From Chloroflexota bacterium (GTDB taxonomy: Bacteria > Chloroflexota > Dormibacteria > CF-121), in NCBI GenBank assembly GCA_034666565.1, contig JAXDLN010000036.1, positions 32,079 through 96,078 on the forward strand: a stretch of DNA of 64,000 nucleotides, in the 5' to 3' direction. The notes beneath the pieces were generated by a model, which was not told the DNA's origin, did no database searches, and saw only the letters and a list, made by a program, of their open reading frames with translations. Both the position numbers and the translations under genes were made by a program. Shown here piece after piece: positions 19,725-22,148 of this stretch. Position 1 is the stretch's first letter; every line of letters begins with the position of its first letter.

Positions 19725-22148
19725 ATGAGCAGCGCCATCAACCTCAAGCTGGGGGCCCGCAAGCCGGCACAGGCCGGGAAGCCGGATGCCTCGGCGATGG
19801 AGATGGAGCGCCGCATCATCTGGGTCCGCTGGCTCGCGATTCTGGTCTCGCTCGGCGCGCTTCCATTCCTGTCAACCAGTCTGAACCAGCAATCGCTCGT
19901 GACCCTGGCGGCCTTGATCGGCCTCGGGGCGATCTACAACCTGACGCTGCTCGTCATCATCCTTCCGCGTAAACCCGGATGGCTGACCAGCGGCTATATC
20001 TCGGCGATTGGTGACACCCTGCTCGTCACCGGCGGCGTCGCCGTGACGGGCGGCCTGGACTCACCCTTCTTCCTCGCCTATTTCGTCGTGACCGTCACCA
20101 CGGCCGTGCGCTTCGGCGGTCTGGCCGCCATCGTCGCCGTCCTTACCATCGCCCTGAGCTACACCGCCGTCGTCTACTACGATAACGCGGTCGCGGGCAC
20201 GGCCCTGGCGCTGAGCGCGCTCACCAACCTGGCGATGCGCACCGGCTTCGTCGCCATCACCGGCATCTTCGTCGGCTTCGTCGGCGACCGCGCCCGGCGA
20301 GCGGAGCAGGCGCTGGAGGAGGAGTTGGAGCGGGCGCATGCCTCGTTGTCCGAGGTGACGGTCGAGCTCAACCGGGACCTCGAGTTCGAGCAGACCTGCT
20401 TGCTCGCTGCCGAAAAGGGCCGGCTGCTGCTCAACGCGGATGCCTTTTTGCTCCAGGTCCAGATGCCGCCCTTGATCGGTCAGGATGAGTCCGCGCCCCC
20501 CGCCTCGACGCTCTACATCGACTGGAGCCCCGAGCTGAAGGAGCAGTACGCCGGCGTCGACATGACCGGAGCGCGCTTGACGCTGACGCCCGCGATGGGC
20601 GAGCAGGTCATCCCACTCAGCGACCCCAACATCGTGCTGCCCGACAACCCCAAGGCATTGCCGGCCGGGCTGTGGTACCGCGTCCCCGTTTTCCACGGGG
20701 CGCGTGCGATCGCGGATATGATCATCGGCTTCCAGAACCGCGTCGAGCCGCTGCGCCAAACCGAACAGGAGCTGATGCTGACCTTCGCCGAGCGCGCGGG
20801 CATCGCGATGCGCAATGCGCACGCGCTCGACCAGGCGCAGAAACTCTCGGTCACCGACTCGGTCACCGGGCTGCCCAACCACCGTTATTTCCACACCAGG
20901 TTCGACGAGGAGCTGGAGAACACCAAGGAGACCGGCGGGTCGATCACGGTGATGATGATCGACCTCGACCGCTTCAAGGTCTACAACGACAGCTTCGGCC
21001 ACGCGGCCGGTGACGTCGCGCTCAAAGCCGCGGCACGCACCATCTCGTCGACGATGCGTCGCGAGGACACGGTCACCCGCTACGGGGGCGAGGAGTTCGT
21101 GGCCATCCTACCGGGGGTCGACATCCAGACCGCGCCAATGCGGGCGCAGGAGATCTGCGACACCCTCGCCAAGGTGTTCATGTACAACCCGAAGACCATC
21201 TTCGCGCCGCTGACCGCGTCGGTCGGCTGGGCGACCTATCCCGTCGACGCCAAGAACCGCGACGAGTTGCTGAACCGCGCCGACCTTGCCATGTACATGG
21301 CGAAGAAGCGCGGCCGCAACTGCATCTGCGGCGCCTGCGAGCTGGAAAGCGTCGCCGCGCTCGACTCGGTCTTGAGCGAAGTCGTCGCCCAGCTGGCGAG
21401 CGCGGACACGGTCGGGCCGGGAATGGTCGCGACCCTCGAAAAGCGCCTCGGCCAGATCGCCAACTCGAGCCACCTCGAAGAACTCGCCGAAGGTATGCTC
21501 TCGCCGAATAGCGAGGCGACGCTGGAAGCGCTCAACGCGCTGGCGGCCTCGATCGACGCCAAGGATCCGTACACCAGCGGCCATTCGCAGTCTGTCGCCA
21601 AGCTCGCCGAAGACCTGGGCGACATGCTGCAGCTGTCGGCAGCGCACAAGAACCAGCTGCGCCTGGCCGCGATCCTGCACGACGTGGGCAAGATCGGCGT
21701 GGTCGACAAAGTCCTGCTCAAGGAAGGCAAGCTCGACGAAGACGAGAAGCTGATCATGCGCATGCACCCCATCCTGGGAGCGCGCATCCTGCAACCCATC
21801 AAGGCGTTCCGACAGATCCTCAACGTCGTGCTCCACCACCACGAGTGGTACGACGGGAGCGGCTATCCGGACGGGCTCGCCGGACAGAACATCCCACTGC
21901 ACGCCCGCATCGTCTCGGTCTGCGACGCCTATCACGCGATGACATCGACCCGACCGTACCGGCAGCGGCGCACGCCGGACTTCGCGCTCGCCCAGCTCGA
22001 GGCGGGCAAGGGCACCCAGTTCGACCCGATCATCGTCGACTACTTCATCCAGATGATGCGCAAGCGCCAGGCCGAAAATCCGGATGCCCTCGAAGCCGAC
22101 GTCCACGACGAACACCCAACCCCGCCTGAGGTCGAGGCGGCGAGCTAG
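19725..22148 (+). CDS. membrane sensor with GGDEF diguanylate cyclase and HD-GYP c-di-GMP phosphodiesterase domains
   Basis: About 6 N-terminal TM helices and a GAF-like middle region. GGDEF active site RYGGEEFVAILPG with I-site RRED 5 residues upstream. HD-GYP motifs ILHDVGKI and HHHEWYDGSGYP. 10-nt gap to the upstream gene and 3 nt to the downstream gene. Confidence 0.85.
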   Translation: MSSAINLKLGARKPAQAGKPDASAMEMERRIIWVRWLAILVSLGALPFLSTSLNQQSLVTLAALIGLGAIYNLTLLVIILPRKPGWLTSGYISAIGDTLLVTGGVAVTGGLDSPFFLAYFVVTVTTAVRFGGLAAIVAVLTIALSYTAVVYYDNAVAGTALALSALTNLAMRTGFVAITGIFVGFVGDRARRAEQALEEELERAHASLSEVTVELNRDLEFEQTCLLAAEKGRLLLNADAFLLQVQMPPLIGQDESAPPASTLYIDWSPELKEQYAGVDMTGARLTLTPAMGEQVIPLSDPNIVLPDNPKALPAGLWYRVPVFHGARAIADMIIGFQNRVEPLRQTEQELMLTFAERAGIAMRNAHALDQAQKLSVTDSVTGLPNHRYFHTRFDEELENTKETGGSITVMMIDLDRFKVYNDSFGHAAGDVALKAAARTISSTMRREDTVTRYGGEEFVAILPGVDIQTAPMRAQEICDTLAKVFMYNPKTIFAPLTASVGWATYPVDAKNRDELLNRADLAMYMAKKRGRNCICGACELESVAALDSVLSEVVAQLASADTVGPGMVATLEKRLGQIANSSHLEELAEGMLSPNSEATLEALNALAASIDAKDPYTSGHSQSVAKLAEDLGDMLQLSAAHKNQLRLAAILHDVGKIGVVDKVLLKEGKLDEDEKLIMRMHPILGARILQPIKAFRQILNVVLHHHEWYDGSGYPDGLAGQNIPLHARIVSVCDAYHAMTSTRPYRQRRTPDFALAQLEAGKGTQFDPIIVDYFIQMMRKRQAENPDALEADVHDEHPTPPEVEAAS

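Follow-up and report, generated by a model that had tools for sequence, protein, structure and literature searches.

In a 64,000-nucleotide stretch of DNA from a Chloroflexota bacterium (Dormibacteria, CF-121; GenBank assembly GCA_034666565.1, contig JAXDLN010000036.1, positions 32,079 to 96,078 of the forward strand), hereafter the window, a gene for an 807-residue GGDEF-HD-GYP protein lies among the genes of a labdane-type diterpene pathway. We show that this sensor enzyme is a fixed member of the diterpene operon, and that the family to which it belongs adjoins a class II diterpene cyclase in five sequence groups, designated A to E. The protein is an inner-membrane signalling enzyme in which six transmembrane (TM) helices and a signalling helix lead into a GAF domain, followed by a GGDEF domain that retains every catalytic and I-site residue and by an HD-GYP domain. 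The operon reads, in order, class II diterpene cyclase (DxDD type), class I terpene synthase, the GGDEF-HD-GYP gene, type-2 isopentenyl-diphosphate isomerase (IDI), a geranylgeranyl diphosphate (GGPP)-type synthase and a GDSL-family gene.

A preliminary description of the window had placed an 807-residue GGDEF and HD-GYP protein between a terpene synthase and an isopentenyl-diphosphate isomerase, and the open reading frame (ORF), its domains and its neighbours are confirmed here. The interpretation offered there is supported: the catalytic residues, retention in orthologous clusters, and promoter or terminator signals, on any of which it was said that the idea could fail, did not refute it. 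Its terms "bifunctional", "co-transcribed" and "sensor detects the lipid product" are conclusions drawn from sequence, and are worded accordingly below. The association itself is stronger than could have been known at that stage: a family of cyclic di-GMP (c-di-GMP) sensor enzymes and class II diterpene cyclases form a conserved genetic module.

Association with class II diterpene cyclase genes

Homologues 64-96% identical to the window protein come from metagenome-assembled genomes (MAGs) labelled Candidatus Dormibacteraeota or Chloroflexota, and the class I synthase family is similarly restricted to those MAGs. When one genome per species was scanned with a synthase alignment, 33 Dormibacterota loci were recovered. 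The GGDEF-HD-GYP gene directly follows the synthase gene in 32 of the 32 loci whose DNA continues past the synthase. Group-A loci keep the order MFS transporter, cyclase, synthase, GGDEF-HD-GYP gene, IDI, prenyl synthase, GDSL and PucR. Between the synthase and sensor enzyme genes, 32 of 35 loci have a gap of -1 to 16 nt and the other three have 40, 40 and 99 nt; the gap to IDI is -1 to 14 nt in most orthologues. Two orthologues, both in species-representative MAGs, are interrupted, L035 by a frameshift at about 12389-12391 that splits the GGDEF from the HD-GYP part, and L023 by an aberrant 3′ end near 13343-13736; these are either assembly errors or pseudogenes.

Because retention within group A comes from a syntenic region, the more distant groups are the stronger evidence for a link. 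The five groups are 28-38% identical to one another and all lie beside a class II cyclase, in four gene orders, and full-length relatives 30-37% identical to the window protein have its whole architecture in common. Group-B loci (~35% identity) have cyclase and synthase, then 130-360 nt of spacing before the gene, and this holds in every one of at least 8 distinct loci with readable upstream DNA and otherwise unrelated surroundings. Transposase genes of the IS110 family (L049 3511-4821) and the ISL3 family (L051 5761-6828, minus strand) flank group-B copies, a hint that the trio of cyclase, synthase and sensor enzyme moves or sits in variable regions. In group C (~36%) the cyclase gene is followed by the sensor enzyme gene with a 4-nt overlap, then by prenyl synthase and IspH, and no class I synthase is present on the 8 kb of contig that is visible.

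Group D (~32%) has synthase, cyclase, sensor enzyme and prenyl synthase as overlapping genes on a contig of 38.9% G+C (L064 3591-9395), with TetR, isochorismatase and MFS genes upstream. Because of this base composition the host would be quite a different organism, and the module is probably not confined to Dormibacterota. In group E (~30%) the sequence for the C-terminus of the class II cyclase overlaps the start of the gene, and prenyl synthase comes next. Apart from one clade, 64% identical to the window protein and considered below, a cyclase or synthase adjoins the gene in every readable context. Locus L005, whose contig stops in the intergenic region upstream, is uninformative.

The sensor enzymes of groups A, B and C are 33-37% identical and their cyclases 40-45% identical, with groups D and E 28-36% identical to the rest; this parallel divergence is consistent with long co-inheritance. 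Orthology of the group A and group B class I synthases was considered and rejected, as they are only ~20% identical, and for that reason the constant partner of the sensor enzyme would be the class II cyclase rather than the synthase.

Catalytic and sensory domains of the protein

The GGDEF domain (residues 376-532) matches Pfam PF00990 with an E value of 1.8e-43 and 148.5 bits against a cut-off of 23.8, and NCBIfam TIGR00254 with 162 bits against a cut-off of 37.4; among solved structures it matches PleD (1w25, 3.5e-25) and WspR (3bre, 6e-25). The GGEEF site and intact RxxD I-site of the preliminary description are present on alignment to solved GGDEF structures, as R445-R-E-D448, five residues, and G454-G-E-E-F458 (the A-site). 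Metal- and guanine-binding residues are found as D413 and D415 in IDLDRFK and within N421-D-S-F-G-H-A-A-G-D430. These assignments are based on alignments to 3icl and 5m3c, a full-length match to the NCBIfam PleD-family model and the residue numbering of PleD.

The HD-GYP domain (residues 607-768) matches Pfam HD_5 at 2.1e-38, with 132.2 bits against a cut-off of 27.2, and contains H652-D653 and H705-H706-E707...D710-G-S-G-Y-P715. Its structural matches are V-cGAP3 (5z7c, 2e-38, the best), PmGH (4mcw, 6e-32) and PA4781 (4r8z, 9e-26), and the HD, HHE, D and GYP positions of all three align with the window protein. The metal ligands of PmGH (E185, H189, H221, D222, H250, H276, H277 and D305) were mapped through a HMMER alignment to 4mcw, with a self-consistent chain index offset of six. 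Seven of the eight are kept, as H620, H652, D653, H681, H705, H706 and D734. The eighth, the third-metal glutamate E185, is replaced by Tyr616, as it is in V-cGAP3, so that the full ligand set of a tri-metal site is absent; tyrosine occupies this position in 52 of the 53 relatives in which it can be read. The substitution suggests a two-metal rather than a three-metal site, which excludes the tri-metal subclass but not the HD-GYP family. The best solved relative, 5z7c, is annotated as specific for cyclic GMP-AMP (cGAMP), and the choice among c-di-GMP, pGpG and 3′3′-cGAMP as substrate is not readable from sequence.

Homologues of the protein number 601 at E≤1e-20. Among 55 full-length members, the motif ND.FGH.AGD and the HD dyad are each present in 55, HHE..DG.G[YF]P in 53, and RxxD-5-[GA]G[DE]EF likewise in 53; the A-site is GG[DE]EF in 49 and AGEEF in 6, all of the latter in group B. 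Since the motifs are kept in 53 to 55 of 55 relatives, both catalytic domains are under purifying selection, and this conservation indicates that the ORF is a real gene under selection and not a chance one. In groups A and B, the GGDEF and HD-GYP domains both look catalytically competent.

A PDB sequence search with the N-terminal 375 residues returned nothing at E≤10. An AlphaFold model of residues 1-379, built on a 15-sequence alignment (mean predicted local distance difference test score 77.7), has helices at 20-49, 55-82, 91-108, 114-130 and 132-157, a sixth at 163-215, and then an alpha/beta domain of GAF fold that extends to residue 378. The model thereby bears out the earlier estimate of about six TM helices and a GAF-like region; a hydropathy profile, with four hydrophobic segments at threshold, supports a membrane region without fixing the number of helices at six. 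As all loops of the modelled membrane domain are of 8 residues or fewer, it would have no extracytoplasmic domain and the sensor would be essentially buried in the membrane, and membrane-only sensing by the hexahelical module is suggested. Residues invariant across the groups in this domain include N72, G109, G110, S113, Y119, F120, R129, G131, Y146 and T179, and the relatives of 30-37% identity share the intramembrane motifs ERRIxxIRW, PF, YN, TGGxxSPFFLAYF, RFG and DRARxAExAL.

A homologue search with a profile of the N-terminal part brought up chiefly fragments of this family, together with one weak histidine kinase. An exhaustive profile search, which revealed groups D and E, was dominated by giant multi-GAF proteins, and about ten of its matches cover the membrane domain. 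The N-terminal module is thus, as judged from these searches, essentially specific to this family, with a few giant multi-GAF proteins and the weak histidine kinase as exceptions. Two of the giants, P0354 (3415 residues) and P0415 (2238 residues), have an N-terminal membrane domain that matches this family, and 11-15 tandem GAF domains, with GGDEF or a histidine kinase with receiver domains as output. Many relatives match the Pfam models 6TM_PilS and DUF4118 at or near threshold (P0076 with 26.7 bits on 6TM_PilS against 27; P0406 with 31.2 bits on DUF4118 against 28.4). Kinship of the membrane domain to this PilS-like group is likely, though not secured for the window protein.

The operon and its surroundings

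Coordinates are collected in the table. The genes from the cyclase to the GDSL gene lie on one strand, with short or overlapping junctions. The cyclase and synthase genes overlap by 20 nt when the synthase start is set at 18807, and the IDI stop and the prenyl synthase start overlap in the sequence ATGA. The sensor enzyme gene is separated by 9 nt (19716-19724) from the synthase gene and by 3 nt from the IDI gene; the preliminary description had the latter right and gave the former as 10 nt. No terminator-like site occurs at either junction of the GGDEF-HD-GYP gene, and a sigma-70 scan, which is uninformative for an uncultured phylum, found no promoter-like site in 16900-25300. These observations and the conservation of the short gaps in orthologues speak against transcriptional separation, and we infer a single transcription unit of the terpene genes and the GGDEF-HD-GYP gene. 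Translational coupling of this gene to its neighbours is plausible, "co-translated" being a loose wording for it. In an Rfam scan of the window only tRNAs were found; neither the operon leader nor the rest of the operon region matched any RNA family, the c-di-GMP riboswitch included.

Features of the diterpene operon, the sensor enzyme gene and their neighbours (positions in the window)
Feature	Position	Strand	Basis and remarks
MFS transporter	15802..17061	(-), divergent from operon	tblastn orthologues in the same place in group-A loci; MFS_1 recorded for the L001/L002 orthologue
Conserved operon leader	17193..17284	(+)	sequence comparison across 15 diverse loci
Class II diterpene cyclase, beta-gamma fold, 503 residues	17315..18826	(+)	PDB sequence search, Pfam SQHop_cyclase_C, DxDD
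Class I terpene synthase	18807..19715	(+)	Pfam Terpene_syn_C_2 60 bits, Terpene_synth_C 54 bits
6TM-GAF-GGDEF-HD-GYP protein, 807 residues, ATG start	19725..22148	(+)	ORF and domain scans
Hexahelical membrane domain, residues 20-187	19782..20285	(+)	
Signalling helix (to about residue 215) and GAF-fold domain (residues 221-375)	20286..20849	(+)	
GGDEF diguanylate cyclase domain	20850..21320	(+)	RRED 21057-21068, GGEEF 21084-21098
HD-GYP phosphodiesterase domain	21543..22028	(+)	HD 21678-21683, HHEWYDGSGYP 21837-21869
Type-2 (FMN) isopentenyl-diphosphate isomerase	22152..23201	(+)	NCBIfam TIGR02151 405.8 bits, cut-off 281.3
Short-chain (GGPP-type) polyprenyl diphosphate synthase	23198..24238	(+)	Pfam polyprenyl_synt 216 bits
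GDSL-family lipase/acylhydrolase, final gene on this strand, with an uncertain start codon	24255..25067	(+)	Pfam Lipase_GDSL_2 75.9 bits; conserved in group-A loci
PucR/CdaR-family regulator, GGDEF-like (GGDEF_2) middle domain	25069..26694	(-), convergent	Pfam and synteny

The class II cyclase, with the general-acid motif DxDD as DADDT at residue 291, has as its best PDB match 6vpt (1e-67), Rv3377c of Mycobacterium tuberculosis, followed by the ent-copalyl diphosphate synthases 3pya (2e-43) and 5bp8 (9e-40); matches to ent- and syn-copalyl diphosphate synthases in general lie at 1e-40 to 1e-43. The class I synthase scores above the cut-offs of the Pfam terpene synthase models and reads DDYLEE (a DDxxE variant) for the DDxxD metal motif and NDLRTHERE for the NSE/DTE motif, with weak PDB sequence matches only and no close characterised relative. 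Its longest ORF begins at 18690, inside the cyclase gene, and is used by some database entries (340-344 residues). Because most homologues have 301-305 residues and GAGGAG precedes the ATG at 18807, the true start is most likely there. For the prenyl synthase, the best NCBIfam models are GGPP synthases, all matched below their equivalog cut-offs.

Upstream of the cyclase gene, the 15 aligned loci share a leader with the blocks CGnAACGT..CCGCAA..GGCGGTAGCCTC. It contains a short 5-bp hairpin at about 17241-17257 with GC-to-AU covariation, a Shine-Dalgarno-like AAGGGGG at 17264-17270 and an invariant ACGGAA at 17279-17284. The annotated GTG start of the cyclase at 17315 is not conserved (GTT in L014). 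Read from the ACG at 17279, the number of codons is constant across loci, and the spacer that precedes it varies by non-multiples of three; for these reasons cyclase translation may start at the non-canonical ACG, or the leader may be a regulatory 5′ element.

In every group-A locus the PucR/CdaR regulator gene runs convergently towards the end of the operon, and groups B-E lack it; its product could be an operon regulator or a c-di-GMP-responsive factor. An NCBIfam scan gave no match for the window copy of the MFS transporter. Between the FtsH and MFS genes lies a tRNA (15342-15414, plus strand), and a 232-codon ORF at 15075-15773 is spurious because this tRNA sits within it; further tRNAs are at 7481-7553, 45015-45096 and 48884-48957, all on the minus strand. 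The window as a whole (~66% G+C) is ordinary core chromosome, with genes for LeuRS, ComEC, thiolase, Lon, FtsH, Obg, L21 and ValRS. Its highest G+C (0.70-0.72) is reached in 32000-36000, which also has a strong A-over-T skew (0.23-0.28). An ORF there for a very hydrophobic polytopic membrane protein (34106-35668, minus strand) has no Pfam match at E≤1e-5, and the same is true of an ORF at 32538-34277 (minus strand).

Possible functions of the pairing

The explanation that we consider best overall, at a confidence somewhat short of even, is that the membrane and GAF module reads a cue from the pathway and sets the level of c-di-GMP. A single transcript of the operon would begin in the conserved leader that precedes the cyclase gene, and the hexahelical module and GAF domain would read a hydrophobic pathway cue such as GGPP, a bicyclic prenyl diphosphate or the final diterpene, which would partition into the membrane. 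Alternatively, the cue could be the cyclase itself. In either case it would shift the balance between c-di-GMP synthesis by the GGDEF domain, product-inhibited through RxxD, and hydrolysis by the HD-GYP domain, and cell-wide c-di-GMP signalling would thus be coupled to terpenoid production. A pathway lipid or the cyclase is the likeliest input because the sensor is intramembrane, family-specific and co-diverging with the cyclase. Lipid or intramembrane ligands have been documented for the six-helix modules of nucleotide cyclases and PilS (PMC11606603, PMC12505454, PMC6058289), and PilS binds PilA via its six TM segments (PMC6058289).

Several observations weigh against this explanation. The 32 group-A loci are not independent evidence, because synteny extends over the whole region between FtsH and ribosomal protein L21. 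The 130-360 nt gap that precedes the gene in group B means that it may have its own promoter there. Groups A and B have the I-site but groups C-E lack it, and in group E the HD-GYP domain looks degenerate, so that regulation would differ between groups. The window protein does not match 6TM_PilS or DUF4118 at E≤5, and its resemblance to the PilS six-TM sensor is accordingly sub-threshold. The main argument against a strict product sensor comes from the 64% clade, which keeps an intact gene at the same chromosomal position (L058 5903-8272; also L004). Its neighbours encode RsfS, NadD, Obg, L27, L21 and DUF3105, an SDR gene and a 31-codon ORF precede it, and no terpene gene was found in 5.9 kb of contig upstream or 10 kb downstream; the cyclase, synthase, IDI, prenyl synthase, GDSL and PucR genes are all missing from the locus. 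Since a cyclase is present in all of groups A-E, loss or relocation of the terpene genes in this clade, with the signalling enzyme retained, is the simplest reading. The protein is thus not strictly dependent on adjacent terpene genes.

Retention without the pathway fits a pathway-independent input, as would be expected if the two functions were co-expressed and nothing more. In that case c-di-GMP turnover would accompany the terpenoid as part of one stress or developmental programme, and the sensor would respond to something outside the pathway, for example redox, membrane state or a nucleotide. The tight packing of the operon and the many types of ligand bound by GAF domains are in keeping with this account, but it poorly explains why one sensor family, and essentially no other architecture, is tied to the class II cyclase through four rearrangements and in a 39%-GC genome; we regard it as unlikely, though it is the strongest competitor. 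The 64% clade and the group-A synteny could also be taken to mean that the gene is a passenger, functionally unrelated to its neighbours and held in place by a conserved chromosomal region, and GGDEF proteins are indeed numerous in many genomes. This account is highly improbable, because the pairing persists across the five groups and their four gene orders, in copies flanked by transposases and in a host of low G+C.

Information could also flow in the reverse direction, with locally made or removed c-di-GMP controlling the pathway post-translationally, by binding the cyclase, the synthase or an exporter, or via contact with the cyclase. A comparable case is that of exopolysaccharide synthases, which are gated by diguanylate cyclases encoded next to them. 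The neighbour that never varies is the class II cyclase, whose stop codon often overlaps the start codon of the sensor enzyme gene, and this suits stoichiometric co-production and a physical complex. However, none of the cluster proteins scanned with Pfam and NCBIfam has a PilZ domain or another recognised receptor domain for c-di-GMP, and there is no c-di-GMP riboswitch in the window, so that a novel binding site on the cyclase would be needed; we rate reverse control as unlikely, slightly more so than co-expression. We give least credence to a biosynthetic role, in which the HD-type phosphohydrolase or the GGDEF domain would act on a prenyl diphosphate, by removal of diphosphate or by formation of a terpene-nucleotide conjugate. 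The precedent would be 1-tuberculosinyl-adenosine, a product of the Rv3377c/Rv3378c locus, and the 6vpt match of the cyclase points that way, as does the lack of a class I synthase between or beside the group-C genes. That synthase could nonetheless be elsewhere, given the short contig, and a scarcely probable role of this kind is at odds with the full cyclic-dinucleotide signatures of both domains (GGEEF, the guanine-binding N and D, HHExxDGxGYP) and with a 6TM-GAF input architecture typical of signalling proteins.

Sensing of a pathway cue, which we prefer, can be taken further, to a proposal that we put forward as doubtful but worth stating. The hexahelical/GAF module might be a dedicated receptor for a labdane-type diterpenoid or its prenyl-diphosphate precursor, with the cyclase and sensor enzyme forming a make-and-sense circuit. 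Acting as an autocrine or community signal, the terpenoid would set c-di-GMP and hence dormancy or lifestyle, both in Dormibacterota and in one or more unrelated low-GC lineages. If true, the enzyme would be the first in bacteria whose second-messenger output is gated by a terpenoid.

The GGDEF-HD-GYP tandem is a recognised architecture (PMC7026642, PMC6205966), and most such proteins are said to have one inactive domain (PMC6205966). The window protein resembles tandem GGDEF-HD-GYP and GGDEF-EAL sensor enzymes in its catalytic pair and N-terminal sensory domain, and hundreds of GAF-GGDEF-HD_5 proteins are found among its homologues. Its family differs from these enzymes in having a hexahelical and GAF module of its own, ties to diterpene cyclase genes, and catalytic residues in both domains. 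The hexahelical membrane domains of class III adenylyl cyclases (AC9 6r3q, AC5 8sl3, Rv1625c 7yzi) resemble the module at the level of fold, without sequence homology. With bacterial labdane-related clusters, such as ent-copalyl diphosphate synthase systems, the window shares a DxDD cyclase, a predicted class I synthase, a prenyl synthase and IDI, but it lacks cytochrome P450 or other typical tailoring genes and has an embedded signalling enzyme instead. In Streptomyces, c-di-GMP governs natural-product synthesis globally through BldD (PMC7026642), which likewise joins c-di-GMP level to secondary metabolite output. BldD, however, is a trans-acting transcription factor and the c-di-GMP enzymes lie outside the clusters, whereas here the enzyme is encoded inside the operon. 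The preliminary description knew of no such arrangement, and in the open-access literature we likewise found no description of a c-di-GMP enzyme within a terpene or diterpene operon, and nothing relevant on terpenes of Dormibacter, although absence is not proof. The parts are thus of known kinds, and the combination of a c-di-GMP sensor enzyme family with a class II diterpene cyclase is, as far as we found, unreported.

Physiological roles are known for a minority of bacterial diterpenes, and inputs for a minority of c-di-GMP enzymes. A conserved pairing of a sensor enzyme family with a biosynthetic step provides a candidate ligand for an orphan membrane sensor and, at the same time, a cellular read-out, c-di-GMP, for an orphan terpenoid. 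As the cluster belongs to a widespread, uncultured soil phylum, heterologous reconstruction is a practical route to both. If the link is direct, the lipid-receptor idea for the six-helix anchors of nucleotide cyclases would extend to diguanylate cyclases, and specialised-metabolite clusters would be seen to carry a second-messenger module of their own.

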